Shown one piece after another: positions 24,377 to 53,564 of a stretch of 64,000 nt of DNA. The stretch comes from an uncultured Candidatus Saccharibacteria bacterium. Its GTDB lineage: Bacteria > Patescibacteriota > Minisyncoccia > UBA6257 > GWB1-50-10. The position numbers and the translations under genes were made by a program. The notes under the pieces are model-generated. The model searched no databases, was not told the origin of the DNA, and was given only the letters and a program-made list of their open reading frames with translations. Positions within the stretch are counted from its first letter, which is position 1. Every line of letters starts with the position of its first letter. The stretch spans positions 39,463 to 103,462 of the forward strand of contig CAYUXY010000002.1 of NCBI GenBank assembly GCA_964449245.1, read 5' to 3'.

Positions 24377-24450
24377 TTCGAAATTCGAAATTAGGTAAAT
24401 CGAAATTTGCATTACTTTCTACTTTACAAACTTTATAGACTTTTAACTTT
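24377..24450. repeat. dispersed intergenic repeat module A (near-identical copy at 41120..41190)
   Basis: ttcgaaattcgaaattaggtaaatcgaaatttgcattactttctactttacaaactttatagacttttaacttt. Confidence 0.8.
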
Positions 24451-24523
24451 AGTTTTTGACTAACCTGCTCCATATCATATGTTGTTTGTCGTGTATTGTT
24501 AGTTGTTTGTTATATGTCATTCA

Positions 24524-26239
24524 TTATTCCCTTATAACTCTCAAAACTTCTTCGAGGGTGGTAATTCCGAGTTCTACTTTTTTAAGTCCATCTTCGAGCA
24601 TTGTAGTCATACCTTCTGCGCGAGCAATTTTACGCAAAGCATCGAGGCTGAATTCCGGACTCATTATCAATTTTCTGACACCTTCCGTTACATTCATCGC
24701 TTCAAAAATACCAACCCTGCCCAAAAATCCGGAATTATTGCACGCCGGACATCCTCGTCCCCTATATAATACTTTTGGAATTTTAACTATATCAGGGTTA
24801 ACCGCCGAACTTTGAAATTCGAGCTGTATGGCCTTCATCGTTTCTTCATCCGGAGTATAAGATTCTATGCAATCGTTATGAATTCTCCTCGCGAGTCTTT
24901 GCGCGCACACAACATTTAAAACAGCCGCGACCAAAAATGGAGGCACGTTCATATCTATAAGACGCGGAACGGCGGTAGGAGCGTCATTTGTATGAACGCT
25001 CGAAAGCACAAGATGTCCGGTAAGCGCGGACTGCACGGCAATATTCGCCGTTTCCGCATCTCGAATTTCACCGACCATAATAATATTAGGGTCCTGACGT
25101 AATATTGAGCGAAGTCCGGTTGCAAACGTAATACCCGCAGCAGAATTTACCTGCGTCTGATTTACATAACGCATATCATATTCTATAGGATCCTCGATAG
25201 TAACTATATTAACCTCCGACCGATTCAAAATATTCATAATAGAATAAAGAGTCGTTGTTTTTCCTGAACCGGTAGGTCCGCAGACAAGAACCATTCCGTA
25301 TGTTTTTTTGACACCATTTTCCACGAGCTTTATTGTTTCATCAAAAAGTCCGAGTTCATTTAATGAAATCGGTTTTTGAGCCGCATTTAAAAGACGCATC
25401 TCTACTTTTTCTCCATAAAAAGTCGGGATTACGGAAACACGGACATCCATAAGAGCATCGCCTATTTTATGGCGGAATCTGCCGTCTTGCGGATGAGTAT
25501 GTTCGTCCACTCTAAGTCCGGAAAGTATTTTCATACGAGCAGTAATTGCGGGATGAATTTCTTTTGGCATTCTTATTATTTCTTCCAAAACACCGTCTAT
25601 GCGAAATCTTACAAGTATGGCATCATCGAGCGCTTCAAAATGAATATCGGAAGCTCTGGAAGAAATAGCGTATTCAAGAAGGTTGTCGACAATGGCGACT
25701 ATTGGAACATCTTCTGCCTCTTGGTTTAAATCCCCCTTTGATTTAGATCTCAGAGACTCTTGAATCCTGTCTTCTATAATTTTTTTAAAATCCTGCGTGA
25801 GTTGTTTGTGATATAACAAATATCCCCTATTTAAGTCTTCATCTGTGGCAAGATATGGCCTCACCTTTGATTTGAGTCTGAGCGAAAGAAAATCAATCGC
25901 CTCAAGGTCTGTCGGGTTATCCATCGCCACAGCATAAGATCCATCGTCTTCTTTTTTGAAAAGTATTATTTTTCTCTGTCTCGCGACCTCTTCCGGTATA
26001 AGATTCATTACAACTTCGTCTATCTTTTGAGTACCGAGATTAACCCTTTCAAAACCGAGAGTTTTTGCGAGCAAATTGAAGAAGAATTCTTTACTTATAA
26101 GTCCCTTTGAAACAAGAATGTCTACGACGTTCTGCCTTTTTCTGTCGGCTTCGTCTTTTACCGCGTCAAAAGTCGCCGTATCTATCACGCTCGCGGAAAT
26201 GAGCATTTCTTTAATTTGTTGCGATGGAAGTGAAATCAT
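24524..26239 (-). CDS. pilB: type IV pilus assembly ATPase PilB / GspE family
   Basis: 571 aa. N-terminal GSPII_E_N domains, Walker A GPTGSGKTTT, and the tetracysteine motif. Confidence 0.9.
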   Translation of the reverse strand: MISLPSQQIKEMLISASVIDTATFDAVKDEADRKRQNVVDILVSKGLISKEFFFNLLAKTLGFERVNLGTQKIDEVVMNLIPEEVARQRKIILFKKEDDGSYAVAMDNPTDLEAIDFLSLRLKSKVRPYLATDEDLNRGYLLYHKQLTQDFKKIIEDRIQESLRSKSKGDLNQEAEDVPIVAIVDNLLEYAISSRASDIHFEALDDAILVRFRIDGVLEEIIRMPKEIHPAITARMKILSGLRVDEHTHPQDGRFRHKIGDALMDVRVSVIPTFYGEKVEMRLLNAAQKPISLNELGLFDETIKLVENGVKKTYGMVLVCGPTGSGKTTTLYSIMNILNRSEVNIVTIEDPIEYDMRYVNQTQVNSAAGITFATGLRSILRQDPNIIMVGEIRDAETANIAVQSALTGHLVLSSVHTNDAPTAVPRLIDMNVPPFLVAAVLNVVCAQRLARRIHNDCIESYTPDEETMKAIQLEFQSSAVNPDIVKIPKVLYRGRGCPACNNSGFLGRVGIFEAMNVTEGVRKLIMSPEFSLDALRKIARAEGMTTMLEDGLKKVELGITTLEEVLRVIRE

Positions 26240-26407
26240 AAAAATTGAAAGTTAAAAAATCAAAATGGAAAATGGCGTAATATTAATTTCGATTGAATGG
26301 AAGAAGTATAAAGTTAAAAGACGAAGAACGGTCTGAATTCTATGCTATCCTCTCCTCTTTTATCTTTCTACTTTTCACTTTTGTCTTTCTGCCTTCTTCT
26401 CCGACAA

Positions 26408-27007
26408 CTAAAAACTAACAACTACCAACTTAATTAGTATACCAATAATTGCGAGCGGTAGCCAAAACAAATAAAGTGATGTTCGCTCCTTACCGGAACG
26501 ACTATGAATCCTTTGGATGATTGAAAAGACAACTGCCAGCAAAAATACGCACGCAACATAATGAATCCATAAATAATTCCACGCGGGATACCCAAGCAAA
26601 AAAATCGCAAGCGCAGCGAAATACAATTCATCCGGTTCAAAAAAACATCCGCGGGCGCGTTTATTTAAATACGTTCCGCCAAAAAATACTGCGACAGCGA
26701 CGAGCGCCGAAAAACAATAGAACAAAAGGAAGCGCATAAAGTGATAATAGAAAACATATCCTATTCCAAGATAAGGGGGAACAAGAAAACTCGCGGGCGG
26801 ACCGGCAGATTTCCATGCAAAATATTGAGCAATTACTATCCAAAAATAGTATCCGATGATAAAAGATACGGAACAAAATAAAAATACCTTCCCAATAATC
26901 TCTTTAGAAAATTTCCGTTCTTTGTTTTCCTTATTCAATCCGAAAATCTGCATAAAAAATGCGAGCAAAATAAAAAGCGCTGAAATTAACGGGACAATGT
27001 TATGCAT
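26408..27007 (-). CDS. polytopic membrane protein (hypothetical)
   Basis: 5-6 TM helices. The start was moved to the internal Met MHNIVPLISALF because the longer tracked ORF overlaps the pilin terminator. No prepilin-peptidase motifs were recognised. Confidence 0.45.
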   Translation of the reverse strand: MHNIVPLISALFILLAFFMQIFGLNKENKERKFSKEIIGKVFLFCSVSFIIGYYFWIVIAQYFAWKSAGPPASFLVPPYLGIGYVFYYHFMRFLLFYCFSALVAVAVFFGGTYLNKRARGCFFEPDELYFAALAIFLLGYPAWNYLWIHYVACVFLLAVVFSIIQRIHSRSGKERTSLYLFWLPLAIIGILIKLVVVSF

Positions 27008-28228: not shown

Positions 28229-28557
28229 AAGAAACTTTTTAGCTGCCCCAATTTCACCGGTGTTTAAAAAGATCCGGCAACTTTTTTTGGTACCGTGCTT
28301 GCGCACGGTATTACAAACCGCTGAAAGTTATCCGCCATTTGAAAATAGATTTCCAAATAAAAAGCGGATTGCTTTCGGCGATGTGTAATCGACTAAATTA
28401 ATTAATCCACGAACAGCTTCCGCTACCCGTGCCTTGTTACGACTTCGTCCGTGTCACCGAGCTTAGGCTGAACCCCTGTTGGAGTTTTCACCCACTCCCG
28501 GCTCCCCTGACGTGACGGGCGGTGAGTACAGGACTCGAGAACGTATTCACCGCGGCG

Positions 28558-29121: not shown

Positions 29122-29765
29122 TACAATTTTGTTACTGCATAACAAAATTGCAATTTCTAATTTTGAATTTCGAAACTAATCGAAATAAAAATCTAATAAT
29201 TGCAAGCTCTGTTATGGGATGAAATATTTCTATTCATCTCTCTATGTCGCCATAGAGTTCGGCCTATATCTTCTCATCATAATGACGAGTCTGGCGTATA
29301 GTCTCTGAGGCTCCAAATTTACTATAGAAAATTATTCTTGAATCATTGTATAGACGATTCGAAGAATTTCTCAATTTTGATCTCATCGATTGCTTATCAT
29401 TGCTTCTATACAAGATCATTGCTTGATCGATTGATCAATTTTCCTATCAACATAATAAAATTGTTGCCTGCTGATTGTCTGCACCGAAAAGATTTTCACT
29501 CAACAATGAGTACTCTCGGATTCTCAGATTTTCCAGCATATAGCCAGATTATCCCCCGGACGACTTTCCGGAGGGGACTAATGCTCAATGGTACCCTTCC
29601 ACTCCGCGTATTCTTCAATACGCGAGACAATACATTTTTCAAGAAGCTCTCGGAAGTGAAAAAGATTGGTCTTTTGTAAAACAAAAGTTTTTCACTGAGA
29701 GTGCAAACCCGATTTTCCGCTGGAGAAAATCGAGGTTGGTTCTTGAAAATGAATTATCGAGCAAG
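29122..29765 (-). other. ~640-nt intervening sequence inside 16S (between GGATTAGA and GATACCC), ORF-less and highly structured
   Basis: Conserved 16S sequence is contiguous once this block is removed. No homing-endonuclease ORF. Multiple local hairpins. Boundaries are ambiguous by 2 nt. Confidence 0.7.
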
Positions 29766-30335: not shown

Positions 30336-30432
30336 CCCATCTCCAGTTCACTGAAAACAATTTCCTAAATACAAAGTTTGTAATATTAACATTCTTTGTT
30401 CAAAAAAATGTACTCAGTGAACTGGGGATGGG
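30336..30432 (-). repeat. 97-nt structured hairpin element in 16S V2 helix (copy A)
   Basis: cccatctccagttcactg ... cagtgaactggggatggg. Identical to copy B except for one compensatory base pair. Confidence 0.85.
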
Positions 30433-30515: not shown

Positions 30516-30612
30516 CCCAGCTCCAGTTCACTGAAAACAATTTCCTAAATACAAAGTTTGTAATATTAACATTCTTTGTTCAAAAAAATGTACTCAGTGA
30601 ACTGGGGCTGGG
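30516..30612 (-). repeat. 97-nt structured hairpin element in 16S V1 helix (copy B)
   Basis: cccagctccagttcactg ... cagtgaactggggctggg. Identical interior to copy A. Confidence 0.85.
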
Positions 30613-31136: not shown

Positions 31137-31199
31137 AGCGTCAGCCATCTGTTATATATTTAACTAAAAACTAACAACCAAAAAATAAAAACTGTATTT

Positions 31200-31844
31200 A
31201 TGGAACTTAATGCACAAACGAGAGTTATTCTCGGAAAAAAATCAAAGAGGGTACGGGCGGAAGGATTTATTCCATCCGAACTTTTCGGACATGGAACGGA
31301 AAATCGCCATCTTTCTGTGCCGGCGAAAGAATTCAAAAAGGTATACGACAAAGCCGGAGAAAACACCGTCATTATGCTTACGATTGACGGCAAAGAAAAA
31401 CAATCCGTGCTTATTTCCGAAACGCAATTTAACAGTCTTTCGAATATGTTTATGTCTGCCGCGTTTCGCGCAGTAAAGAAAGATGAAAAAATAACAGTTT
31501 CTGTTCCGGTAGAATATACGGGCACGGATATGGCAGTCAAAAACGGATTTATACTTATGAAATTAGTTCAAGAAATAGAAGTAGAAACTTTCCCGAACAG
31601 CATCCCCCATTCATTTATAGTTGATATAACTTCTCTCACGGAACCGGGCCAGTCAATCGAAATAAAAGACATAACCGTTCCAAAAGAAGTCCGGATTCTT
31701 ATCGCCGAAGATACCGTTCTCGCGGCAGTTACGGAAAAAGAAGAAGAGGAAATTGCCCCTGTAGCTGAAGTTCCGTCCACCACCGCAACGGAATCGGAGA
31801 AAACCCCAGAGTCAGCTTCAACAGAAAACAAAGAAAAGAAATAA
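31200..31844 (+). CDS. rplY: 50S ribosomal protein L25 / general stress protein Ctc
   Basis: 214 aa, L25 N-terminal beta-barrel plus Ctc-type C-terminal domain and an acidic tail. Confidence 0.85.
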   Translation: MELNAQTRVILGKKSKRVRAEGFIPSELFGHGTENRHLSVPAKEFKKVYDKAGENTVIMLTIDGKEKQSVLISETQFNSLSNMFMSAAFRAVKKDEKITVSVPVEYTGTDMAVKNGFILMKLVQEIEVETFPNSIPHSFIVDITSLTEPGQSIEIKDITVPKEVRILIAEDTVLAAVTEKEEEEIAPVAEVPSTTATESEKTPESASTENKEKK

Positions 31845-33828: not shown

Positions 33829-33862
33829 CAATAAAAAACCGCGATGGTCAATCGCGGTTTTA
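33829..33862 (-). terminator. rho-independent terminator after prfA
   Basis: aaccgcgat-ggtcaa-atcgcggtt followed by a U-run on the minus strand. Confidence 0.55.
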
Positions 33863-34597
33863 TTTCATTTCTCTCGCAGTCTTAATTATCTTATCCATAT
33901 CCCCCTCTAAGGTCTTCTCCACCCCGTAGAATTTTTTGCCCATTCTGTGATCGGTTATCCTGTCTTCGGGGAAATTATACGTCCTTATCTTTTCCGAACG
34001 GTCTGCGGAGCCTATCTGCTCTTTTCGTATCTGGTCAACGGACCCGACAGCTTGCTCTCGAGTTATCTCAAAAAGTTTTGCTCGGAGTATTTCCATAGCC
34101 TTTTCCCTGTTTGCGTGCTGTGTCCTTTCCTCTCGCGAAGAAATGACTATTCCTGTGGGCTTATGGGTAATCCGCACGGCAGTTTCAACTTTATTTACAT
34201 TTTGCCCTCCGGGACCGCCTGAACGGCAAAAAGTTATTTCCAAATCGCTTTCTTTTATATCAACCTCCTTTGCTTCCACGATAGGCAAAATGGCAACGGA
34301 CGCCGTTGATGTGTGAATCCTTCCCTGACGTTCCGTAACAGGCACGCGCTGAACGCGGTGAACTCCTGATTCCTGTTTCATATCGTTATATACCCCCTCG
34401 CCTTTTATTTCTGCGACAAAGGTTTTATACCCCTGCGCGCCGGATTCGGACGCGTCAACTATACCAAATCCCCATCCGCGCTTTACGGCATATCTCTGAT
34501 ACATTCTCGCCAAATCTCCGGCAAAAATCGACGCCTCATCTCCACCCGCCCCGGCTCTGATTTCAACAATAATCTTTTTTATATTTTCAACATTCAT
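33860..34597 (-). CDS. prfA: peptide chain release factor 1-type protein lacking N-terminal domain 1
   Basis: 245 aa. PVT codon-recognition tripeptide ([14 protein letters not shown]) and GGQ motif ([11 protein letters not shown]). Begins directly at the [10 protein letters not shown] region. Confidence 0.8.
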
Positions 34598-34843
34598 AAT
34601 ATTTTATTCCATTTTTTTACACACCGGGGCGAGGCTCGCCGAATTGTTTGCTGTAAGCTGGAGGCGGCCCGCCCCGGCCCTGATTTCAACAATAATCTTT
34701 TTTATATTTTCAACATTCATAATATTTTATTCCATTTTTTTACACACCGGGGCGAGGCTCGCCGAATTGTTTGCTGTAAGCTGGAGGCGGCCCGCCCCGG
34801 CCCTGATTTCAACAATAATCTTTTTTATATTATTCGTATCCAT
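34553..34843. repeat. 123-bp tandem direct repeat (about 2.4 copies) duplicating the prfA start region
   Basis: ATGs at 34597, 34720 and 34843 on the minus strand. Each upstream copy encodes [38 protein letters not shown] then a stop. Confidence 0.85.
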
Positions 34844-34910
34844 ATGATTTATAAATCAATAACACTGATGCTGACGTTCACAAGTACAAAAATTATTATC
34901 CAAAAATCCG

Positions 34911-35789
34911 CTAAAGACAAGTTTGTTTAAAAAGGCTGACTCTTTTTAAAATGAGCTCTTCCATATCGGAAACGACTGGGGAAAGCAATTTATAAGGAGC
35001 AACTTCTTGATTTGAATTTGTAAAAGATTTTTCTATGCTATTGCGCCACAAAACACGCAACTCTGTCGAAATATGTATTATTGAAACGCCGGCGGAAATT
35101 GCTTTTTTAAAATCATCATCCGAAATTCCGGAACCGCCGTGCAAAACCAACGGCACGCCTGCCGACGCACGGATTTTTGAGATTCTTTCTATGTCGAGTT
35201 TCGGATTCGGCGAGTTTTTAAGCATACCGTGTAAATTGCCTACCGCCGGAGCGAGCATATCAATCCCCGTCTTTTTTACAAATTCTCTCGCCTCTTCCGG
35301 AGTCGTAAAATGCGCTTCATGAACCGCCACTCCATCTGGAATCTCATCAAGCATCTTTGACGAAGTGCCTATATATCCGAGTTCGGCTTCTAAAATCGGT
35401 TTTTCCCCGAAAGGAGCGCGCTTTTTTAGAACGCGAACGGCTTCCTTTGTCATTCGAATATTTTCACTAAAAGATAGATTGGCTCCGTCAAAAATTATCG
35501 AATCAAATCCGGCCTTCGCCACGCGTTCTACTCCTTCAATCGAACGTGTATGATCGGCGTTTAAAAAAAGTTTTGCTCCGTTTTTGCGATAAATTTTGAC
35601 GAGAGATGCTATTTCACTGACCCCAATAAAATCCCGCTCGCTTTCGGAAACGCCTACAATAATAGGAAAATTCAATTTCACTGATACATTCGCGATAGCC
35701 TTAATCTGTTCAAGCGTTGAAACATTAAAATGCCCTATGGCAATTTTTTGCCTCTCCGCATTTTTTATTGTTTTTAATAATGATTCCAT
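34911..35789 (-). CDS. fba: class II fructose-bisphosphate aldolase
   Basis: 292 aa with class II aldolase metal-binding His residues and TIM-barrel motifs (HGGSG). Confidence 0.9.
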   Translation of the reverse strand: MESLLKTIKNAERQKIAIGHFNVSTLEQIKAIANVSVKLNFPIIVGVSESERDFIGVSEIASLVKIYRKNGAKLFLNADHTRSIEGVERVAKAGFDSIIFDGANLSFSENIRMTKEAVRVLKKRAPFGEKPILEAELGYIGTSSKMLDEIPDGVAVHEAHFTTPEEAREFVKKTGIDMLAPAVGNLHGMLKNSPNPKLDIERISKIRASAGVPLVLHGGSGISDDDFKKAISAGVSIIHISTELRVLWRNSIEKSFTNSNQEVAPYKLLSPVVSDMEELILKRVSLFKQTCL

Positions 35790-35798
35790 ATTTTTATT

Positions 35799-35959
35799 AT
35801 ATCAGCATCGCACCACTTTATTCGTATCATTCGAATGCATTAGTATATTAGCATCGCACTTATTCTATTCGTATCATTCGTATAAATTCGTATATTAGCA
35901 TTGTGTCTATTCATTCGTATCATTCGCATAAATTCGTATATTAGTATTATACCTATCTT
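35799..35959. repeat. ~47-bp tandem repeat x3.4 immediately upstream of fba
   Basis: Units tagcatcgcac ... attcgtatcattcgYataaattcgtatat repeated head-to-tail. Confidence 0.8.
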
Positions 35960-39331: not shown

Positions 39332-39422
39332 ATTAGTATTTCGTATTTTTGTCTTTCTTCTTTTCTCTTTTAACTTACGTATTTAGAAATTTGCATTTTT
39401 ACTTTAAACTTTCATCTTTTCT

Positions 39423-39451: not shown

Positions 39452-39558
39452 ACTTTATATTTCTCCCATTCAATCATTAATACATTCAATCGAAATTCGA
39501 AATTAAGTAATTAGAAATTATTTCTCCTGCATACTATATACAACATTCTATATACCAT

Positions 39559-41002: not shown

Positions 41003-41119
41003 ATTAGTATTTCGTATTTTTGTCTTTTGTATATTGTTTTATTATTTTGTTAACAGTCGATTGTTGTTAATCGTCATCCTGTTAATAGTTATTTAACTTC
41101 CTTCATTTAATCATTAACT

Positions 41120-41190
41120 CATTCAATCGAAATTCGAAATTAGGTAAATCGAAATTTGCATTACTTTCTACTTTATAAACTTTTAACTTT
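41120..41190. repeat. dispersed intergenic repeat module A (copy)
   Basis: cattcaatcgaaattcgaaattaggtaaatcgaaatttgcattactttctactttataaacttttaacttt. Confidence 0.8.
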
Positions 41191-41413
41191 CTTCTCCTAT
41201 ATATTCAAACCTCGGCATCTTTTTCCCGTCAATTTCAACGTCTTCCATAAACATATCAAGTGGCCTGACCCACATAGTATTTGCACCCTTACCCTTAATA
41301 GGATCCTCGTGAATATATACCGCCATCTTCTCCATAGTTTCGCTATGTAACGCGACACCAATCAATTCAACAATCATTCCTTTATAGTGCCTGTATTTTC
41401 CCAATTTGAGCAT
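41183..41413 (-). CDS. DUF1653 domain protein
   Basis: KYRHYKG ... HSET ... WVRP signature. 76 aa. Confidence 0.75.
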   Translation of the reverse strand: MLKLGKYRHYKGMIVELIGVALHSETMEKMAVYIHEDPIKGKGANTMWVRPLDMFMEDVEIDGKKMPRFEYIGEES

Positions 41414-41482: not shown

Positions 41483-41944
41483 TTATTTCTGGCCATAAAA
41501 TCTTTCGTGCAATTCCGGACATTCATTCTTAAAAATTTCCTCCATTGGATCTTTCTTTTTCACTTGCTTAAATTGAATGCCTCTTTTTGACCCGCCTTTC
41601 ACTCTCAAAATAAAACTACTGACTAATTTAGAGCACTCGGTTGCTAAATTATTTAAATGCTTAAATGTTTCAATACTTAAATAACCGACATCTAACGCCG
41701 CATACAACTGCGCGCGAACTTCACCAGCCGACCCTTTTGCAATATATAAATAGTTGATAAATCCAGCCGTAGTTCCGCTTTCAAATCCCTCTGCGATATT
41801 ACTCATCACCGAAACCGACGCTCTCTGAATTTGGTCTTTAAAACCCGCGTCATTACAATTTTTGAAAGCATTATAGACATCGCGGGTTAATTCTCTGGAT
41901 TTTTGCCAACAAATAAGGTCTTCAAATTTTTCAATCGTTGCCAT
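41483..41944 (-). CDS. four-helix-bundle protein (23S rRNA intervening-sequence protein family)
   Basis: FEDLICWQKSRELTRDVY ... SNIAEGF ... YLYIAKGSAGEV matches the TIGR02436-type pattern. 153 aa. Confidence 0.75.
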   Translation of the reverse strand: MATIEKFEDLICWQKSRELTRDVYNAFKNCNDAGFKDQIQRASVSVMSNIAEGFESGTTAGFINYLYIAKGSAGEVRAQLYAALDVGYLSIETFKHLNNLATECSKLVSSFILRVKGGSKRGIQFKQVKKKDPMEEIFKNECPELHERFYGQK

Positions 41945-44940: not shown

Positions 44941-45164
44941 TTGGAGGGATTCCTTGCATTTCTCCGCTTCGGTAAACCGCATTGGAGACAAGAAATCTAC
45001 ACCCAACTCAACGAAAGCACTATATCATAGAAAAATTCAAAAAGCAAGAGCAAAAACAGTTATTAGTTTTTAGTTGTTGGTTTTTAGTTATAATGTATTT
45101 TCTAAAAACTAATTACTTTTAACTTCCTTTCCCCGTCTTTTTACTTTCATCTTTTAACTTTCGA

Positions 45165-46597: not shown

Positions 46598-47473
46598 CTA
46601 TCGCAAGCCAAAAACAGATATGTGTCCACCTGAAATTTCAGCTTTTATCGTTCCATATTCATCCGTCCTGAATATTTCCGCTCCAGAGTCTAAAATACGA
46701 CCGACCGCCTCCATAGACGGATGTCCATACGAATTTTTGCCAACCTCTATAAATGCGAGTTTTGGCTTTATTGCGCTTAAAAAATCATTACCGCTCGAAT
46801 ATTTCGAGCCGTGATGTGCAACCTTCAGAATATCTATCTCTGGCAAAAAAGATGCGATTGCGGATTCCGAAGCAAAGCCTACGTCTCCGGAAAAGAGCGC
46901 GCTTGCCCCGTCGCTCCTTAGAAGAGTAACCATACTATTGTCATTCATATTTTTTTGTACGCTATCGTATCTCGGCCACAAAATTTCTATTACTGAATCC
47001 CGATAATGGATTTTGTCGCCTCCGGAAACAACGATGCGCGTAATGCCTGCGCTATTTATTTCTTCTTCAAAAACTTCGAAAGATTCGCTGTCGCTTTTAA
47101 GTTTCGCGAGAGCAAGCGATCTTATAGGCATACTTTTTATAACATCCGCAAACCCGCCATAATGGTCTATTTCCGGATGTGTTAAAATCGCTAAATCTAT
47201 TTTTTTATTTGTAAAAGGAAGTATGTTGCCAATTTCGTTCGCTGATCGGCCGTTAGCCGGCCCGGCGTCTATCAAAATATTTACTCCGCCCGCAAAAGTT
47301 ATAAGCTCGCTGTCGCCTTGCCCTACGTCAAGAAAATAAAGAGCTGTTCCGTTTGTGTCTTCGGATAAAAATCCGGCAATTGCAAAAATATCAAACACGA
47401 GGCATATTGCCGTTATTGAGAAAAAAATATTCAGACGTTTTCTTTTTTCGTAATATTGTTCTCGCGATTCCAT
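46598..47473 (-). CDS. ComEC/Rec2 C-terminal metallo-beta-lactamase-fold domain protein
   Basis: LDVGQGDSELITFAGGVNILIDAGP and HHGS motifs. 291 aa. The 5' end overlaps the preceding ComEC ORF by 83 nt in another frame. Confidence 0.75.
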   Translation of the reverse strand: MESREQYYEKRKRLNIFFSITAICLVFDIFAIAGFLSEDTNGTALYFLDVGQGDSELITFAGGVNILIDAGPANGRSANEIGNILPFTNKKIDLAILTHPEIDHYGGFADVIKSMPIRSLALAKLKSDSESFEVFEEEINSAGITRIVVSGGDKIHYRDSVIEILWPRYDSVQKNMNDNSMVTLLRSDGASALFSGDVGFASESAIASFLPEIDILKVAHHGSKYSSGNDFLSAIKPKLAFIEVGKNSYGHPSMEAVGRILDSGAEIFRTDEYGTIKAEISGGHISVFGLR

Positions 47474-48917
47474 AAAAAATGATTAACGCTGTGTAATATA
47501 ATAGCACGGCTGGAGTGGAAAAATTCAGGGACACGCCTCCGCTAATTTTACCAAAAAATTCTATGATTCCTATTTCGCATTGTAACAAGAATCCGAGCAC
47601 TACTCCGGAGATAATCGAAAGAAAAGGCAGTGAAAGCTCCACAAAAACAGAGACAAACCCGAGAGCCATTGTAAACGGCGTAAGGGATAAAAGAACTATA
47701 TTTGCCGGCAAGGACGCAAGAGAGACAAAGCCAAATTTGGAAAGCAAAATTGGCAAAACCGTTATTTGCGCGGAAACGGTAGTTAACAGATTTTCTTTCC
47801 ACGAGAATATTCCTTTGTCTCCGTTTGTGTTCAAAAAAAGTTCTATTTTGGGCTTCAAATAAACGATGCCGAGTAAAGCGAGGAACGAGAGTTGAAAGCC
47901 GATATCAAAAATCAAAATTCGGGGATTATATAAAGACATAATTAGCGCCGAGAGCAAAATAACATTTTTCATACTTTCCCCGCTTCCAAATAGGCGCCCG
48001 AAAAGAATAGATGCCCCCATGATTCCTGCGCGGGCAACCGAAGGCTCCCCTCCCGTCATTATTGAAAATCCGGCTATCGAAAACAGCGATGCGAAAAACG
48101 AACCTCGCGGAGTCATAAAAAGCGTAAACAGTGATGCTACGGCAAGAATTAAAATTGTTATGTTGTATCCGGAAAGCGCGACGAGATGCGTAGTTCCACT
48201 CTTCTTCATAGCTTCATCAAATTCGGAAGAAAAATCGTTTGTATTGCCAAGCAATATACCCTTTAAAAAAGCTGCGGATTTATACGGCAAAATAGCATTA
48301 ATTGCGAGCTCGACTTTTCCTTTTATTTTAAATAGCGCGGATTTAATGAAAGAACCGTTATTATGAGAAATTAAAATAATTTCAGGAAACGATAAAATTC
48401 CATACATTCCTTCTTTTATTAAATAATTTCCATATCCGTTTTCGGGAATCTGTTTTATTTCTCCGGTAAATTCTACTTTGTCGCCATATTTGAAGACAGG
48501 AAATCTCGCGGTCTGAATAAGTATATTACCCCTATAAGGCTCTGATAATTTTACCGCAATCTCCTGCTTTTTTTCTGAAAACGCCGGCGATTTTGACACA
48601 ATACCTTGAATCGTAACGGCATCTGAAAATGGAATATTTATTTTACTATTCTGTATATCAAAAAATCCGGAATAAAACGCTCCGCAAAATATAAATGATG
48701 CCACGAATGGAAAAAACAAAAAGCCTTTCTTTTTGGAGAAAAAATAGCAAACGAGCGGAACTATAAATAAAACGAGTATGAACGGGAATGCCGTCACGCC
48801 GAAACCTAAGCTCGCAAGCGCAATTCCAATGAGCACTCCCGACGACCCCCAAAAGAATTTTTTATGCAGAGCATCAAGCGAATGCGCGAGAAAAAATGAC
48901 ATGAGCGAAAAATACAA
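47391..48917 (-). CDS. ComEC/Rec2 competence membrane-channel domain protein
   Basis: 508 aa polytopic membrane protein with a competence-domain-like core. Confidence 0.7.
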   Translation of the reverse strand: MYFSLMSFFLAHSLDALHKKFFWGSSGVLIGIALASLGFGVTAFPFILVLFIVPLVCYFFSKKKGFLFFPFVASFIFCGAFYSGFFDIQNSKINIPFSDAVTIQGIVSKSPAFSEKKQEIAVKLSEPYRGNILIQTARFPVFKYGDKVEFTGEIKQIPENGYGNYLIKEGMYGILSFPEIILISHNNGSFIKSALFKIKGKVELAINAILPYKSAAFLKGILLGNTNDFSSEFDEAMKKSGTTHLVALSGYNITILILAVASLFTLFMTPRGSFFASLFSIAGFSIMTGGEPSVARAGIMGASILFGRLFGSGESMKNVILLSALIMSLYNPRILIFDIGFQLSFLALLGIVYLKPKIELFLNTNGDKGIFSWKENLLTTVSAQITVLPILLSKFGFVSLASLPANIVLLSLTPFTMALGFVSVFVELSLPFLSIISGVVLGFLLQCEIGIIEFFGKISGGVSLNFSTPAVLLYYTALIIFYGIARTILRKKKTSEYFFLNNGNMPRV

Positions 48918-49034
48918 ATTTCGAATTACCTAATTTCGAATTTCGATTGAATGAATTAATGATAAAATTTCTGAATGCATTTGCTTGCACTAACAACTAA
49001 AAACTAATAACTACAAACTGCATTACGCCACTTT
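48915..49034. repeat. intergenic repeat modules A (reverse orientation) and E (ctaacaactaaaaactaataactacaaactgcattacgccactt)
   Basis: Module E recurs at 49713..49755, partially at 26405..26435, and in reverse complement at 45055..45090. Confidence 0.75.
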
Positions 49035-49558: not shown

Positions 49559-49746
49559 ATCTTAATATTAATTTAATAACTGAGTAAAAAGTTGAAAGTA
49601 CAAAAGATGAAAGTGAAAAAACTAAAGCACGAATGTGGGTATTTTTCTTTCTTTTCTTTTAACTTTAAACTTTTATCTTTTTACTTTTGTCTTTTATCTT
49701 TCTGCATTCTTCTCTAACAACTAAAAACTAAAATCTAAAAACTGCA

Positions 49747-51450
49747 TTACGCCACTTCCGCTTGATAACATTCTTTGCAATAAATAATCGGAGCATTTTT
49801 CTCTAAAAATGTAGTCCTAAACGAAACTCCACACTTGGAACATTCGCGCTCTATTGTTTTGCAATAATTGATATTTTCAATCCACCTGTTTACCTTTTTC
49901 ATAATCCTACACATAGGACACTCCCGCGGAAGAGGCAAGTTCATTCTTTTTAAAAACTGAAATTCCATACCTATTATGCGAAATCCATTACCGCAGGCGG
50001 AACATTTAATAACTTCGTTTAAGATTGATTCGTCCGCGTCTTTTATATTATCAGGCAATTCATCGAAATTTTTAGTTATCTCGTGCTCTTTTTGCGGTCT
50101 GTCTATCCACCGCAATCCTTCATTTTCCGACTGCTCTCTTGTCTTCGGAAAAAATAAACTCCCAAAAGAATCGTTGTATGGAACGTCGGATAATTCCATA
50201 GGGAAAAATTCGCCGTATTTATAAATATTTCCCTTTTTATCCGTATATGGCATTTCGTCCATATGTTTTATTATTTTTTCGCGAAGAGAATTGAATTCGT
50301 CCTCTGAATATCTTTTGTTCAATATGCAATACTCTCCTTTGTTTACCGATACGCAACCAAAATGATTTTTGCCTCCATTAGACAATCTCGAATATTCGGC
50401 ATCGGATTGACCTAATCCGCTTTCCCAGCAAAATTTTATTCCAGAAATGTTTTCTCCAACGTTTACGGAATCATAAGAACGGCTCATATTATTTCCCCAG
50501 CTTGAAATGTCGTATGATTCGCTTGACGGATTATCATTTACCAAAAACAAGAATTTTGAATCCTGCGAAAAACTCGTTTCGAAGCCTTCCATCACATTTT
50601 TCGAATTGAAAATATAATTTCCGGTTGAATTAACGCAAAATCTGTCATAAAGCCCTTTATACGGGTATTTTTTATTGTTTTCTTCGGCTTGTTTTTTAAC
50701 AGCTATATATTGAGAATATGAACCTAAATCAATTTCCGATAGCTTTCTAAAATATTCTTCTTTTGATAATTGTTCATTAAAGAAGACGTACTTTTTGTTT
50801 TTTATATTTGCAGAAGCAAAACAATTTTGGCACCCAACCGCATCGCGGGTAAACAGGCATTCCATAGATTCTGTAGTGTGATCAACGCCAATACATTTAT
50901 TGTCTTGAAAACTGTGTATTGAATCGAAACACAGCTCCGAATCTGAGGTTATGGAACAATCAAAAACCTCTTTATTGTCAAAATGGTGAAAGCCATAAGC
51001 GCAATTTTCATCCCTGTCGCTATGAAAAATAAGATACGAATTTTTCTGATTCCCTACGTGGTTCGTATATGGAGAGGTGGCAATGGACGCGATGTCTGTA
51101 GAAAGCGCGGACAAGGGAGCCTCGTGCAACAACTCATTAAATTGTTCGAAAAACGGGCGCGAAAAATCATAGTCTCTTCCGTAATCATACGGGCTCCAAT
51201 TATCGCTCCACCAACATTTTGCGCAATAAACTACGTATTTTGCGTCAGGCGGATATCGCGAAACAACACTTTTTTTGCATAAATCGCAGTCTCGTTTATA
51301 AAGACGAAATGTGTTTAAAAAAGCCAATCTCCGCTCTAATCTGCACATCGGGCAAAACGTCGGTGGAGGAACGTCAATCTTCTGATAAAAAGCTTCATCG
51401 TCAGGCGTGATTTCAAAATCTGTTTTACAATTTTGGCACGGCTTATTCAT
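49747..51450 (-). CDS. cysteine-rich protein with terminal zinc-ribbon-like modules and internal repeats (paralog 1), unknown function
   Basis: 567 aa. N-terminal CQNCKTDFEITPDDEAFYQKIDVPPPTFCPMCRLERRL. The C-terminus repeats this CxxC ... CPxCR module. Internal GCxxxxNKxYCIxNxxYSxEEY repeats. Confidence 0.7.
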   Translation of the reverse strand: MNKPCQNCKTDFEITPDDEAFYQKIDVPPPTFCPMCRLERRLAFLNTFRLYKRDCDLCKKSVVSRYPPDAKYVVYCAKCWWSDNWSPYDYGRDYDFSRPFFEQFNELLHEAPLSALSTDIASIATSPYTNHVGNQKNSYLIFHSDRDENCAYGFHHFDNKEVFDCSITSDSELCFDSIHSFQDNKCIGVDHTTESMECLFTRDAVGCQNCFASANIKNKKYVFFNEQLSKEEYFRKLSEIDLGSYSQYIAVKKQAEENNKKYPYKGLYDRFCVNSTGNYIFNSKNVMEGFETSFSQDSKFLFLVNDNPSSESYDISSWGNNMSRSYDSVNVGENISGIKFCWESGLGQSDAEYSRLSNGGKNHFGCVSVNKGEYCILNKRYSEDEFNSLREKIIKHMDEMPYTDKKGNIYKYGEFFPMELSDVPYNDSFGSLFFPKTREQSENEGLRWIDRPQKEHEITKNFDELPDNIKDADESILNEVIKCSACGNGFRIIGMEFQFLKRMNLPLPRECPMCRIMKKVNRWIENINYCKTIERECSKCGVSFRTTFLEKNAPIIYCKECYQAEVA

Positions 51451-51504
51451 AATTTCTAATTACTTAATTTCGAATTTCGATTGAATGAATCAATGATTGA
51501 ATGG
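51451..51504. repeat. repeat module A (reverse orientation) directly abutting the ATG of the Cys-rich gene
   Basis: aatttctaattacttaatttcgaatttcgattgaatgaatcaatgattgaatgg. A similar copy lies at 53321..53378. Confidence 0.75.
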
Positions 51505-51598
51505 AAAAAGTATAAAGTTGTAAGACAAAAGATGAAAGTAAGAATGCAACTATTTTTCTCTGTTTTTTTTCTTTTAACTTTAAACTTTCGTCTTTTGT

Positions 51599-53320
51599 CT
51601 AACTGATTTCATTTTGGTAACACTGTTCACAATATATGACTTCCGGTCTCTCTGGAGCGTAGGATGTCATTATTTCCGCACTACATTTTGCGCAATTACG
51701 TTTCCACAATTTAAGAGGATTCCTTTGCATCAAACGCGAAAAATAACGGCAATTAGAGCACTTTCTCGGAAGCGGGATATTCATTCTTCTGTAAAATTGG
51801 AGTTCCTGCGGGACGATTCTGAAAGCCTTTGTGCAATTGCATCGTTCTTTCATATTTGGATTATCTTTATCATCCCACGTTTCGCACTGTATTATTTCTT
51901 TCAAAATATCATCGGTTACTGTGGAAATTTCTTCCGGTAAATCTTCCCACGATTTAGTCGGAACATAATCCTTATCCTTAATTTCTTTCCAAACATATCC
52001 CCGCTTTAATGCTTCGTCTTTTGAAAGATAAAAATAGTCCTGCGCCGCGCTTATGTTATACGGCAAAAATGATGCTTCCGGTGGGAAAAACTCGCCGAAT
52101 TTATATGTTTTTCCAAAACTCAAAAACGGCATATCGTCCATATGTTTTCTTATTTCCGGCAATAATTTTTCATACTCTTCTTTTGAATACTGTTTGTTCA
52201 AAATGCAGTATTGTTTATTCTTAAGCCCCACACATCCGAAAAGATACGAGGACGAATAACAATTATCACAATACGTTAAATCGTGGCACGATTCCCACGA
52301 TTCGTTAACGAATCTGATATTTGAGAGATTATATCCGCAATTCGCGGTTTCATACACAAGCTCCGCATTTCTTCCCCAGTACGAATAATCCATACAATCT
52401 TTACCCTCAATAATGGACAACAAATTCTTTCCATGCTCAACATCTCGTAATTGATAGGAATTGGACACATCATTGCAATTTGTAAGCCAATTTCCCGAGG
52501 AATTCGTGCAATTTATAGCAACCGTTGATCTGCGCGGATAATTCATTGCAAATTTTTTAAAACGTGCGCGCATCTTTTCAACACCCATTGCCGTATTGAG
52601 ATGAAAATCACGCAGTTTTATTTCATAATCCTCTTTGGAATATTGTTCATTGAATATACAATATTGCTTATTTAAAAGACTGGCGCATCCGATACAATTC
52701 GAGCAATTTCTGCAATCAAATAGAAAAAATGAATCCCTGCACTGCCTGCATTCCTGCAGATATTTGGACCCATAGCATTCGAACGCGTCTATACTGCCAA
52801 ACACGAGTTCGGATTGATGAACATTGAAGCAATCCATACAATCTCTTGATTCCCAAAGATTGTACGAGTAGCTCGAATTTTCATTATAATTCGCCCTGAT
52901 TATGAGGTAGCAACCTTTGTTATAACTCGCGCGGTTGCAAAATTCATTTCCTGCCTGATCGCCCTGAATCGTTCTCTCCGCTCTCGGAACACGAGCCTTC
53001 AATTCCCTAAACTGCTGGAAAAACGGTTTTGAAAAATCATAATCTTTTCCATATGAAATCGGATCCCAATTGTCGCTTCTGTAGCAATCCAAACAATAAA
53101 CCGGATACTCTGAGCCGGTGTCGTGCGTAGAAATTATTTTCTTTCCGCAAAGTGAACAAGTATTGCCGTATAAATATCTCTCCGCGCAAAAAGAAAGCCT
53201 CCGCTCAAATCTGCACGTCGGGCAAAATGTCGGCGGAGGAACATCAATCTTCTGATAAAAAGACTCATCATCGGGAGTGATTTCAAAATCAGCATTACAG
53301 TTCTGACACAGCTTATTCAT
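51599..53320 (-). CDS. cysteine-rich protein, tandem paralog 2 of the 49747..51450 gene
   Basis: 573 aa. About 60% identical in the N-terminal 100 aa (MNKLCQNCNADFEITPDDESFYQKIDVPPPTFCPTCRFERRL). Same internal repeats. Confidence 0.7.
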   Translation of the reverse strand: MNKLCQNCNADFEITPDDESFYQKIDVPPPTFCPTCRFERRLSFCAERYLYGNTCSLCGKKIISTHDTGSEYPVYCLDCYRSDNWDPISYGKDYDFSKPFFQQFRELKARVPRAERTIQGDQAGNEFCNRASYNKGCYLIIRANYNENSSYSYNLWESRDCMDCFNVHQSELVFGSIDAFECYGSKYLQECRQCRDSFFLFDCRNCSNCIGCASLLNKQYCIFNEQYSKEDYEIKLRDFHLNTAMGVEKMRARFKKFAMNYPRRSTVAINCTNSSGNWLTNCNDVSNSYQLRDVEHGKNLLSIIEGKDCMDYSYWGRNAELVYETANCGYNLSNIRFVNESWESCHDLTYCDNCYSSSYLFGCVGLKNKQYCILNKQYSKEEYEKLLPEIRKHMDDMPFLSFGKTYKFGEFFPPEASFLPYNISAAQDYFYLSKDEALKRGYVWKEIKDKDYVPTKSWEDLPEEISTVTDDILKEIIQCETWDDKDNPNMKERCNCTKAFRIVPQELQFYRRMNIPLPRKCSNCRYFSRLMQRNPLKLWKRNCAKCSAEIMTSYAPERPEVIYCEQCYQNEIS

Positions 53321-53564
53321 AATTTCTAATTATCTAATTTTGAATTTCGATTGAATGTATCAATGATTGAATGTCTGAATGCATTCTTCTGTGCCTATAT
53401 ACTATATACGATATTCTATATACCTTCTTACCTATTCCCCTATCTCTTCTTCAACGAAACCTTGCGCCCCTCTTTCTTTCTGTGCTTCTTTTTGGCTATT
53501 TTTTGTGTTTTATTCATATTCGATTATATTTTGATAATATCACTCATTTACGGGTTTTTCCACT

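Follow-up and report, generated by a model that had tools for sequence, protein, structure and literature searches.

An intergenic repeat module of a Saccharibacteria genome looks like an arm of a selfish, rRNA intervening sequence-like element

Module A is repeated between the genes of a 64,000-nt stretch of DNA (the window) from an uncultured Candidatus Saccharibacteria bacterium. The explanation that we consider reasonably probable is that module A is an arm of a selfish, IVS-like and MITE-like element, and that the copies in the window are its relics or derivatives. The element looks like a selfish insert of the kind known as rRNA "intervening sequences" (IVSs), rather than a promoter or regulatory cassette.

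Results

Module A copies in the window

The window was searched with the 22-mer ATTCAATCGAAATTCRAAATTA, allowing up to 3 mismatches. Seven matches were found against 0.03 expected (none of 100 shuffles reached 7), four on the plus strand (24372, 38790, 39484 and 41121) and three on the minus strand (48931-48952, 51465-51486 and 53335-53356). A repeat search of the window returned the same families (direct repeats D4 and D9, inverted pairs I1-I11), and the core common to the copies was about 58 nt long (alignment A1). A profile built from external elements only recovered every window copy, together with a full element at 21384-21473 and a copy in an intron, and gave no more module A copies outside 21-54 kb of the window. 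The density in the window is about 10 element copies per 64 kb. The copies are real and non-random, and each one listed in the first-pass annotation exists. They are given below, with the arm type (L or R) as read in gene direction.

21384-21473, minus strand: palindrome of the generic pan-CPR type, complete and without an ORF (E 5e-10, spanning positions 3-102 of the profile)
24353-24434, plus strand: c24, solo arm, L-type (E 9e-4, D4), about 116 nt past the stop codon of pilB (24524), within the 375-nt pilB/pilC spacer
26284-26327, minus strand: c26, truncated copy, R-type (nhmmer E 0.17), about 45 nt ahead of the pilB ATG (26239)
29148-29182, minus strand: short heptamer arm in the 16S group I intron (E 2e-3)
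38765-38826, plus strand: c38, solo arm, L-type (E 2e-5), about 35 nt past the stop codon of NUDIX gene 38861-39331
39449-39521, plus strand: c39, solo arm, L-type (E 7e-6, I1), about 37 nt past the stop codon of NUDIX gene 39559-40074
41096-41183, plus strand: c41, solo arm, L-type (E 1e-5, D4, I3), 27 nt past the stop codon of DUF1653 gene 41183-41413
48917-48975, minus strand: c48, solo arm, R-type (E 1e-6, D9), ending at TTG (48917), 15 nt ahead of the first in-frame ATG of comEC (47391-48917)
51451-51521, minus strand: c51, solo arm, R-type (E 5e-6), directly abutting the ATG (51450) of a 567-aa Cys-rich gene
53321-53385, minus strand: c53, solo arm, R-type (E 2.5e-6, D5, D9), directly abutting the ATG (53320) of a 573-aa gene, a paralogue of the 567-aa gene

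The abutment on the ATGs at 51450 and 53320 agrees with what had been noted earlier. The near-identity claimed for c24 and c41 holds for about 63 nt from 24372 and 41121 and drops to 86% across 93 nt; the 3′ part of c24 (24408-24434) is a CTTT-heptamer extension that c41 shares. Between the two strands, c41 and c48 are 93% complementary across 58 nt, and c39 and c51 are 93% complementary across 73 nt, a stretch that takes in the 'AT' of the c51 start codon; c39 and c51 have unrelated flanks. The copy c26 is genuine but truncated, resembling c51 with a deletion between its two CATTCAATC repeats, and both are preceded by a (NNAAAAG)n/(CTTTTNN)n hairpin (at 51598-51525 for c51). What had been taken for a degenerate copy at 21440-21480 is one arm of the complete palindrome, which consists of a left arm, a centre and a (CAAAATT)4 right arm, folds with a z of -2.0, and has its right arm and centre in frame within the 5′ end of the pilin-like ORF 20111-21439. 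The 16S rRNA gene carries a group I intron, and the copy reported near 29150 was found in the terminal stem at the 3′ end of that intron (CATAACA..TTGCAATT / AATTGCAA..TGTTATG), the same place as a full palindrome occupies in the rRNA introns of L008 and L011.

The block ATTA-RRTAAWT-MGAAATT was common to 7/7 window arms and absent from 70 external arms; by sequence comparison, the seven copies are solo arms and bear a signature of this genome alone. It was considered whether they are by-products of local gene duplication, in which the NUDIX and the 567/573-aa paralogues carried their flanking UTRs along and no element biology is involved. For c53 such transport did occur, as c51 and c53 lie within a tandemly duplicated block (D5: 186 nt, 87% identical) that includes 133 nt of coding sequence, and NUDIX genes 38861-39331 and 40574-41002 have the last ~35 leader bases in common (D2). 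However, copies also sit at non-paralogous junctions (between pilB and pilC, upstream of comEC and upstream of pilB), and c39, which is inverted and has unrelated flanks, differs from c51 at 2 positions of 56 nt, against about 5 for c53. Local duplication is very unlikely as the general explanation, and it appears already largely refuted by the external copies described below.

The element beyond the window

The 22-mer core was found in 57 public loci (16 genome and 41 metagenome loci, 41 of them unique), nearly all from Patescibacteria (CPR bacteria), showing that the family extends to other organisms and is not restricted to the window. Fourteen of the 16 named genome loci were titled Patescibacteria, from many classes. 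In the external loci the core forms the right arm of a 90-125-nt heptamer palindrome, (AATTTYG)n...(CRAAATT)n. These palindromes are placed between stop and start codons, in 16S rRNA (L039, L046) or in the 3′ stem of a group I intron (L008 and L011, with the short arm of the window in the same context), and they fold far better than shuffled sequence (median z -3.9). Hairpin stability showed no strand bias (p=0.23) and so gives no evidence of selection on the RNA; the palindrome could act as DNA. No Rfam family covers the element. In the motif-selected loci about one further copy was present per 16 kb, and three relatives together had one copy in ~50 kb of their sequence.

The long hairpins between stop and start codons could be read as intrinsic or bidirectional transcription terminators, with the solo arms as degenerate terminators. 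The stems are A/T-rich, 30-45 bp long and without a U-tract, and the right arm often ends 5-25 nt ahead of the next ATG, leaving no room for a promoter. Some elements also lie within rRNA genes and introns, and termination there would be lethal. A terminator scan gave GC-rich terminators elsewhere in the window (44939-44912, 38289-38263) but none at module A, so that the earlier placement of the copies between stop codon and terminator was not confirmed. A terminator function is thus highly improbable.

The long form carries a PF05635 gene

In 8/8 lineages examined, both arms bracket a ~120-aa PF05635/TIGR02436 gene ("23S rRNA IVS protein"). In L036 and L042 the arms enclose the ORF exactly, and 6/6 further lineages, picked by protein homology only, again showed an arm-bracketed ORF. 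The flanks were complementary in 7/8 units (z -2.7 to -9.3), and the unit was co-oriented with both neighbour genes at all 10 loci with readable neighbours. This arrangement is the layout of the ORF-carrying rRNA IVSs of Coxiella and Leptospira. No transposase, nuclease or reverse transcriptase was linked to the arms, and to our knowledge PF05635 has no mobility function. No PF05635 pseudogene was detectable in the window spacers.

We also considered that the arms are arrays of sites bound by a multimeric protein with affinity for nucleic acids. This would be the PF05635 four-helix bundle itself or else a protein of the cold-shock or S1 type, and the dispersed arms would then make up a regulon or titration network and not a set of relics. 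The PF05635 homologue 2RLD has five chains in its entry, and PF05635 subfamilies track the arm types (AATTTYG arms going with the L036 type and AACAAAC arms with the L077 type). The arms repeat strictly every 7 nt; their cores (AAATT, AAAG, AACTA) are conserved and the other positions variable, which is not as expected from recent slippage. The exact 22-mer core is conserved across CPR classes, which could reflect a shared host factor instead of horizontal spread, and the orientation of the arms to gene ends (below) is also in line with such arrays. On the other hand, the window's own PF05635 gene (41483-41944) is of another subfamily and has no arms, and the junctions are unconserved among relatives. 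We regard the binding-array reading as unlikely.

Orientation and turnover of the solo arms

All 8 window copies fit the orientation rule, L-type after stops and R-type before starts, though only about 6 of them are independent; this fit could reflect a function instead. Relatives with 73-81% PilB identity were compared at orthologous junctions. Their pilB/pilC junction is occupied by a bare 37-nt (AATTTCC)n tract, by a PF05635 ORF in decay or by an intact PF05635 cassette, and the 375-nt spacer of the window keeps 23/29 nt of an L077-type arm. The junction that has a full palindrome in L076 is not the one that has it in the window. These differences indicate, at the sequence level, insertional turnover. 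No target-site duplication was visible at any copy.

Alternatively, several genes might have module A in common as a functional cassette that acts as a 5′ leader, in translation initiation, or as a leader combined with a promoter. The organism has no anti-Shine-Dalgarno, the 16S 3′ end being GGAUUAAUUAAUUU in place of GGAUCACCUCCUUU, and the A/U-rich heptamer tract by the start codon would recruit ribosomes (e.g., through protein S1) or RNA polymerase. Three genes start 0-15 nt from the end of an R-type arm, and pilB starts 45 nt from one. In about 19/41 external loci the right arm ends 3-30 nt ahead of an ATG, often of housekeeping genes (tsf, dnaK, groEL, rplI, rpsR, truB, mreB) and mostly without a Shine-Dalgarno. 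According to passages of PMC4679880, TAACTGA heptamers just upstream of starts in Beggiatoaceae are proposed translational regulators. However, half of the window copies are antisense to genes, after stop codons, and only three or four form an immediate gene leader. No sigma-70-like -35/-10 pair was detected in the module, although good ones are present elsewhere in the window. The leaders show no complementarity to the altered 16S tail (mean -2.10 vs -2.20 kcal/mol in shuffles, p=0.28), and pairing with this tail is no better for window arms than for external ones. Module A is missing from the corresponding junctions of relatives, and the same sequence is present in rRNA and introns too. With copies in both orientations, unstructured arms, no such promoter and unconserved junctions, the shared UTR or regulatory cassette suggested earlier is unsupported as a general explanation, and a leader function for module A seems improbable.

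Discussion

Comparison with known systems

The Coxiella IVS is cut by RNase III in vitro; its terminal inverted repeats pair into a stem of 28 bp, whose loop holds an S23p (PF05635) ORF (PMC4990558). The heptamer element resembles the IVSs of Coxiella burnetii and Leptospira (PMC4990558) in its terminal inverted repeats that form a long stem, the ~120-aa PF05635 four-helix-bundle ORF in the loop, the existence of short ORF-less versions, insertion at rRNA helix tips and a presumed selfish origin. Unlike these IVSs, most of its copies lie between protein-coding genes and not in rRNA, its arms are tandem heptamers, (AATTTYG)n/(CRAAATT)n, and it is multi-copy per genome and common to many classes of Patescibacteria. 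In the window the copies are solo arms, and RNase III cleavage of the heptamer element is only inferred.

In the passages of Tsurumaki et al. 2024 (PMC11270868) used here, CPR rRNA insertions include 23S_rRNA_IVP ORFs and short uncharacterised inserts, with short (<250 bp) non-intron 16S/23S inserts regarded as probable IVSs. The organisms and the ORF family are the same as ours, and the L039, L046 and intron-borne copies are of the same kind as those short inserts. These passages deal with rRNA genes only and hold nothing on a heptamer palindrome or on dispersal between protein genes; a term search of the paper gave no 'repeat' or 'hairpin' and one 'stem-loop', meaning rRNA structure.

The first-pass annotation had compared module A with MITE/REP-like elements. 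This comparison stands insofar as module A belongs to a multi-copy family with inverted-repeat arms that extends far beyond the window and differs in presence at orthologous junctions. Like Correia elements (CREE/NEMIS, Neisseria) and MITEs, the heptamer element is about 100-150 bp long with inverted-repeat ends, is intergenic in small genomes, is co-transcribed with its neighbours and shows insertion polymorphism among relatives. Correia element hairpin RNA is processed by RNase III. The comparison does not extend to the single arms of the window, to the heptamer-array arms, or to a TA or other target-site duplication, and we know of no cognate transposase. Because its long relative encodes the PF05635 four-helix-bundle protein and not a transposase, the nearest known kind is the rRNA IVS, not a classical MITE. 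REP/BIME sequences with RAYT are also extragenic palindromes inside operons, multi-copy and with lineage-specific sequence variants, but their units are 20-40 nt and mobilised by a Y1 HUH transposase, whereas the heptamer unit is 90-125 nt and conserved across phylum-level lineages. No Y1 HUH transposase gene was found among the ~25 window proteins scanned.

The cyanobacterial STRR heptamers are another intergenic heptamer repeat. TAACTGA repeats of Beggiatoaceae, Cyanobacteria and Bacteroidetes, as described in passages of PMC4679880, share with our element the tandem 7-nt intergenic units, the patchy phylogenetic distribution and a position often few bases from a start codon without a Shine-Dalgarno; these passages make no link between TAACTGA and PF05635. 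Unlike TAACTGA and STRR repeats, the heptamer element has a different heptamer sequence and inverted arms around a centre or an ORF, and occurs also in rRNA and introns.

Proposed origin and effects of the element

In our preferred explanation, the selfish IVS-like insert, module A is one arm, along with the inner sequence next to it, of an AT-rich, heptamer-built inverted-repeat element, (AATTTYG)n - centre - (CRAAATT)n, which is widespread in Patescibacteria and has three forms. The long form has arms around the ~120-aa four-helix-bundle PF05635/TIGR02436 gene and lies between operon genes in their orientation. The miniature form is the 90-125-nt ORF-less palindrome in stop/start gaps, at a 16S rRNA helix tip or in a peripheral group I intron stem. 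Solo arms are the third form, to which the seven or eight window copies belong. These appear to be a genome-specific subfamily, copied or homogenised among unrelated spacers in both orientations, with left-type arms staying beside stop codons and right-type arms beside start codons as in the intact element.

Such an insert would tolerate, and be tolerated in, transcribed DNA and would be transcribed by read-through. Its arms would pair into a 30-45-bp A-U-rich stem that RNase III, by analogy with the rRNA IVSs of Coxiella, Leptospira and Salmonella, would cut, and such a cut would either remove the insert from the transcript or split apart the cistrons on its two sides. This mechanism cannot directly apply to the window copies, because they are single arms with no predicted structure of their own (z about 0). 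Unable to form the stem, the solo arms are most likely relics of nested insertions and deletions, and in this organism, which has no anti-Shine-Dalgarno, three or four genes may use them as passive A/U-rich leaders.

Module A copies in the window

The window has a G+C content of ~40% and is coded nearly entirely on the minus strand. It carries pilB, pilC, pilin-like genes, four NUDIX genes, comEC, secA, rmuC and a recQ-like helicase gene. The closest named relatives of its PilB come from Jorgensen-, Brenner- and Paceibacterota MAGs and, together with the gene content, therefore place the host in the Patescibacteria (CPR). Patescibacteria genomes are very small, so abundant repeated intergenic DNA was unexpected.

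The module A copies listed in the first-pass annotation were found to exist. The 22-nt core ATTCAATCGAAATTCRAAATTA matched the window seven times with no more than 3 mismatches, against 0.03 matches expected.

Matches of the module A core in the window
24372, plus strand, start of core (copy c24)
38790, plus strand, start of core (c38)
39484, plus strand, start of core (c39)
41121, plus strand, start of core (c41)
48931-48952, minus strand, core (c48)
51465-51486, minus strand, core (c51)
53335-53356, minus strand, core (c53)

A general repeat search of the window also recovered the family (direct repeats D4 and D9, inverted repeats I1-I11), and multiple alignment gave a common core of ~58 nt. 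The ATGs at 51450 and 53320 directly abut module A, as had been described, and the copy at 26284-26327 (c26) is present but truncated. All these copies are solo arms with no complementary partner nearby. Minimum-free-energy folds of all eight spacers showed no consistent arm pairing around them, and the folding z was about 0.

The block ATTA-RRTAAWT-MGAAATT was common to all seven window copies and absent from 70 external arms (0/70). Two sub-types were distinguished, {c24, c41, c48, c38} and {c39, c51, c53}, each with both orientations. Copies c39 and c51 match by 93% over 73 nt, including the 'AT' of the start codon at c51; they lie in opposite orientation and their flanks are unrelated. Copy c53 shares a tandem gene duplication with c51 and yet is further from it than c39 is; copies have therefore been moved or homogenised within the genome independently of the adjoining genes. 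The family members in the window are mainly solo arms, and these form a genome-specific subfamily.

In terms of gene direction, left-type arms make up the plus-strand set: four copies, each 27-116 nt after a stop codon. The four minus-strand copies are right-type arms, each 0-45 nt ahead of a start codon. An intact stop-L-centre-R-ATG element has the same geometry, which held for 8/8 copies, roughly six of them independent.

Module A had also been proposed to be a shared UTR or regulatory cassette, which was not borne out as a general account of the copies. Orientation to the gene is not constant, with 4/8 copies antisense. Module A is not a sigma-70 promoter either. A promoter scan placed no site in it (promoter-like sites numbered 44, versus 42.1 in shuffles), and the best hexamers found by eye, TTCAAT-17-TAATTA/TAAATC, do not have the T that is invariant at position 6 of a -10 element.

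A 29-nt module, CTAYATACTATATACRAYATTCTATATAC (D19), adjoins module A at 38840-38868, 39527-39555 and 53395-53423; the orientation of module A relative to it is inverted at c53 compared with c38 and c39. On the minus strand this module offers TAGAAT as a candidate -10 element (39573-39545, 38887-38858).

Exact-protein look-up found Logan contigs of 1.8-3 kb from the same organism (SRR8925737/8; L017-L019) that stop at or beside repeat modules, for example a 1,807-nt contig carrying only gene 49747-51450. The repeats therefore fragment short-read assemblies.

The palindrome element beyond the window

In a scan of one genome per species, the exact 22-mer was found in 16 contigs. Fourteen were titled as Patescibacteria and spanned many classes (Moran-, Falkow-, Buchanan- and Doudnabacteria, Saccharibacteria, Paceibacterota and Minisyncoccia), and the remaining two were short or binned MAG contigs. 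A metagenome scan added 41 loci, and 41 sequences were unique overall. The family is thus not restricted to the window, and these external copies, together with the non-paralogous junctions at which copies lie, refute an origin by local duplication only.

At the external loci, the 22-mer forms one side, the right arm, of a palindrome of 90-125 nt that is in heptamer phase over its whole length.

Parts of the palindrome element
Left arm: (AATTTYG)2-5 GAAT
Centre: about CAATTTTTAATGAYTTAAT...ATTAARCATTAAAA
Right arm: ATTCAAT CGAAATT CAAAATT AAAAATT CRAAATT

The full palindromes folded far better than shuffles (median z -3.9). A profile HMM was built from 20 external elements only and then run on the window.

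Matches of the external profile in the window
21384-21473, full element, E 5e-10
Seven module A copies, right half only, E 1e-6 to 9e-4
29148-29182, intron copy, E 2e-3
26285, truncated copy, weak match, E 0.17

The sequence at 21440, described earlier as a degenerate copy, is indeed a family member but is actually one arm of the complete palindrome at 21384-21473. Terminal inverted repeats were accordingly found in this element and in the external palindromes, but not in the seven module A copies. In the pilin-like ORF at 20111-21439 (minus strand), the palindrome centre and a (CAAAATT)4 right arm lie in frame at the 5′ end. Because the N-terminal methylation motif begins just after the arm, the start codon and a portion of the leader peptide seem to come from the element at 21384-21473.

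Outside the window, the typical position is the gap separating one gene's stop codon from the start codon that follows. In ~19/41 loci the right arm ended 3-30 nt short of an ATG, often that of a housekeeping gene, and in ~9 loci the element followed the end of an opposite-strand gene. Beyond the copies selected by the 22-mer, 16 further ones were present in 252 kb of external loci, ~1 per 16 kb. Copy density was ~10 in the 64-kb window versus one in ~50 kb of three syntenic relatives.

The element is very unlikely to be a terminator: it has no U-tract, its stems are A/T-rich, and a terminator would be lethal inside rRNA. Selection on a strand-specific RNA was examined through G-U versus A-C asymmetry, and the difference in folding energy between strands was not significant. 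Rfam matches comprised only SSU and LSU rRNA, 5S, tRNA and a group I intron. Apart from chance miRNA-like matches, no curated model covered the element even to E 10, and a known RNA family was therefore rejected.

Copies in rRNA genes and group I introns

In two external loci (L039 and L046), the element stands alone as an insert in the 5′ region of the 16S gene, near helix 6 as judged by reading. In the 16S gene of L008, the 23S gene of L011 and the window 16S gene, a group I intron whose 3′ core is of the GATATAG type is followed directly by a conserved stem, (G)TAACA...TGTTA(C/T), with the element at its tip. The copy noted near 29150 was confirmed, lying in the terminal 3′ stem of the 16S group I intron.

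The window 16S gene is 2,286 nt long, as compared with a 1,533-position model, partly because of this intron and of two hairpin-forming 97-nt repeats. These repeats (CCCATCTCCAGTTCACTG...CAGTGAACTGGGGATGGG; D12, I17, I24) are 98% identical, lie 180 nt apart in the 5′ part of the gene and occupy 30336-30432 and 30516-30612. At the 3′ end of the gene (28395-28408, minus strand) the anti-Shine-Dalgarno is replaced, and cmscan aligned GGAUcACCUCCUUu to GGAUUAAUUAAUUU with high posterior probability. CACCUCC is kept in the 16S genes of L039 and L008. Upstream of window ORFs, a GGAG/GAGG/AGGA/AAGG motif was present at only 10/56 starts, and window leaders showed no sign of a compensating AT-rich Shine-Dalgarno. 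Module A could be imagined as such an alternative sequence, pairing with the altered 16S tail, but this is not the case. Complementarity to the tail in 49 gene leaders was no greater than in shuffles (p=0.28), and the window arms paired with it no better than did the 70 external arms.

A PF05635 ORF between the arms

In some external loci the element was split, with its two arms directly bracketing a ~120-aa ORF (L042 and L036); in L055 the right arm follows such an ORF. The product is a PF05635/TIGR02436 protein, known as 'four helix bundle protein' or '23S rRNA intervening sequence protein', and its nearest solved relative is PDB 2RLD. As an independent test, homologues were collected by protein search alone (3,873 at E<=1e-10) and the contigs of six were taken. 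The top homologues were 66-100% identical and came from several CPR classes. The ORF was bracketed by the same heptamer arms in 6/6 of these homology-chosen lineages, with the left arm ~120 nt upstream in L067. The flanks form 30-45-bp duplexes in 7/8 units (z -2.7 to -9.3), and the unit was co-oriented with both neighbour genes at all 10 loci with readable neighbours. The heptamers are degenerate yet phased, and arm types go with PF05635 subfamilies; these features leave some, though low, probability that the arms are protein-binding arrays.

None of the window copies carries the ORF. When the window spacers were searched by tblastn with 13 proteins for decayed PF05635 ORFs, only the intact gene at 41483-41944 was returned. 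This PF05635/TIGR02436 gene (minus strand, 153 aa) belongs to a different subfamily, has no heptamer arms and lies ~330 nt upstream of c41. On one external 1.5-Mb contig the cassette and its neighbours, a DUF4012 gene and a glycosyltransferase gene, occur twice ~1.35 Mb apart (L063, 349-8708; L064, 1349068-1357427); the pair is either a large duplication or a terminal/circular overlap.

Turnover at orthologous junctions

Three relatives with PilB identities of 81%, 75% and 73% are syntenic with the window over 13-28 kb. The spacer between pilB and pilC differed in each.

The spacer between pilB and pilC
L075: 37 nt of (AATTTCC)3-4
L077: intact PF05635 ORF between another heptamer arm pair, AACAAAC.../...GTTTGTT
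L076: decayed PF05635 ORF
Window: 375 nt, with a module A arm and an (AAAAG)/(CTTTT) hairpin

Right after the stop codon, the window spacer keeps 23/29 nt of the L077-type left arm (score 33 versus a null maximum of 29). The full palindrome lies between pilC and the next gene in L076, versus one junction further on (next/next2) in the window. Further junctions also vary in length and content between the window and the relatives. Since the junctions differ in this way, the comparison points to turnover by insertion, decay and replacement rather than to a conserved regulatory site.

The 248-nt spacer between pilC and the next gene in the window contains a 74-aa ORF with a GIY-YIG domain (22645-22869, minus strand; Pfam E 5e-11). 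This ORF is probably another small insertion, because the same spacer is only 36-77 nt in L075 and L077 and carries the palindrome in L076.

Other repeats in the window

Period 7 was not confined to module A. Lag 7 was the only lag from 4 to 12 that yielded self-similar tracts, and autocorrelation of non-coding DNA was 0.357 at lag 7 versus about 0.31 at neighbouring lags, with peaks at 7, 14 and 21. A second heptamer family, (NNAAAAG)n / (CTTTTNN)n, often forms inverted pairs, which are hairpins directly after stop codons. A third, (AACTAAA)n / (TTTAGTT)n, is in part arranged as inverted pairs (D6, I13), and the AACAAAC/GTTTGTT arms of the L077 PF05635 gene are related to it.

Further repeats in the window
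26400-26300, 39420-39332, 45164-45120, 49746-49600, 51598-51525 and 60611-60380, read on the minus strand, (NNAAAAG)n family
26401-26444, 31161-31207, 45052-45138, 48990-49033 and 49714-49757, (AACTAAA)n family
39420-39449 and 60497-60526, opposite orientations, 30-nt double GC palindrome TCTCCCTACGGGAGATCTGCCGTAGGCAGA (I14, 94% complementary)
55834-55894 and 56478-56538, 61-nt repeat, 90% identical (D17)
34545-34850 and 35798-35956, tandem-repeat regions (D8, D11, D14, D18)

The TCTCCCTACGGGAGATCTGCCGTAGGCAGA palindromes sit within AAAAG heptamer tracts, and similar GC palindromes (CCTGCCTGCCGGCAGGCAGG) lie at the centre of three external elements (L001, L006 and L053). The 61-nt repeat contains GTTGACA-N17-TAGAAT and precedes the plus-strand ORFs 55899-56276 and 56571-57158; it looks like a genuinely shared promoter cassette. 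Among the tandem repeats, a 123-nt unit (2.5 copies, 98-99% identical) lies upstream of gene 33860-34597 and overlaps its start, and gene 34911-35789 is preceded by ~46-nt repeats made up of ATTCGTATCATTCG-type units.

Discussion

The repeat family is real and belongs to a pan-Patescibacteria element that is IVS-like and MITE-like, has heptamer arms, and occurs in a long form with PF05635. The first-pass annotation had compared the modules with MITE/REP-like elements, and the comparison holds in part. Like a MITE, the element is short, non-coding and multi-copy (units of 55-125 nt), and it shows presence/absence polymorphism at the pilB/pilC, pilC/next and next/next2 junctions of the window, L075, L076 and L077. 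In contrast to a MITE, the module A copies of the window are single arms without paired terminal inverted repeats, and the long relative with the same ends encodes a PF05635/TIGR02436 four-helix bundle, not a transposase. This protein family is not known to act as a transposase. For the route of movement at the DNA level, no target-site duplication, transposase or viral copy was found. There was no direct repeat in the inspected flanks of the window copies, the external elements or the pilB/pilC series, in which A/T-richness could mask a 2-nt duplication. A viral contig collection gave 0 matches, which speaks against a phage vector.

REP/BIME elements are imperfect palindromes of 20-40 nt associated with RAYT, a Y1 transposase, whereas the element described here is 90-125 nt and heptamer-built. 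No Y1 transposase domain was present among ~25 window proteins scanned with Pfam. The TAACTGA and STRR heptamer families share the period of 7, but the units here are CRAAATT/AATTTYG. Integron attC sites, considered in view of the cassette-like NUDIX array, were rejected by eye as no R''/R' core sites were seen; the element also precedes housekeeping genes in other genomes.

The closer likeness is to rRNA intervening sequences. In the Coxiella IVS, terminal inverted repeats pair into a long stem and a PF05635 ORF occupies the loop; RNase III cuts this stem in vitro (PMC4990558). The full elements described here, as opposed to the solo arms of the window, likewise have complementary borders forming a long stem, and L036, L042 and all six homology-chosen lineages carry a PF05635 ORF in the loop. 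Unlike rRNA IVSs, most external copies and the window module A copies lie between protein-coding genes, not at rRNA helix tips; rRNA sites are limited to L039 and L046 and to the introns of L008, L011 and the window. A survey of insertions in CPR rRNA genes reported 23S_rRNA_IVP ORFs as well as short inserts that are uncharacterised, and the parts of it consulted mention neither the present palindrome nor its spread among protein genes (PMC11270868).

By analogy, an intact stem may be an RNase III substrate, so that the insert would be removed, or the cistrons separated, at the RNA level. Such processing would explain how the element is tolerated in rRNA, introns and operons. This route cannot apply to solo arms. 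Most economically, nested insertions and deletions would have left them behind as relics, and recombination or gene conversion would have spread them; they may serve passively as A/U-rich leaders.

A more far-reaching reading combines these points. Heptamer inverted repeats and the PF05635 gene would together form a previously unrecognised selfish cassette of Patescibacteria, an 'IVS outside rRNA', whose protein (probably pentameric) would recognise the heptamer arrays of the cassette's arms. Spread between CPR lineages would follow a possibly RNA-mediated route, and RNase III would remove the cassette from transcripts. ORF-less palindromes and solo arms would fill intergenic DNA, some of them co-opted as SD-independent leaders in a lineage without an anti-Shine-Dalgarno. 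We consider this reading, taken as a whole, unlikely; if true, the long-enigmatic '23S rRNA IVS protein' would gain a role that can be tested.

The short unexplained inserts of CPR rRNA genes, the widespread PF05635/TIGR02436 protein and the dispersed intergenic repeats, three things previously treated separately, appear to be forms of one heptamer-armed family. The repeats break short-read assemblies and can mislead both gene-start calls, for example at 21439, and rRNA-based surveys of CPR. If the relationship is right, the heptamer arms, stem and ORF provide a concrete substrate for probing the role of the PF05635 protein, and it would become possible to examine whether excision by RNase III permits selfish DNA to persist within transcription units, including those of rRNA.
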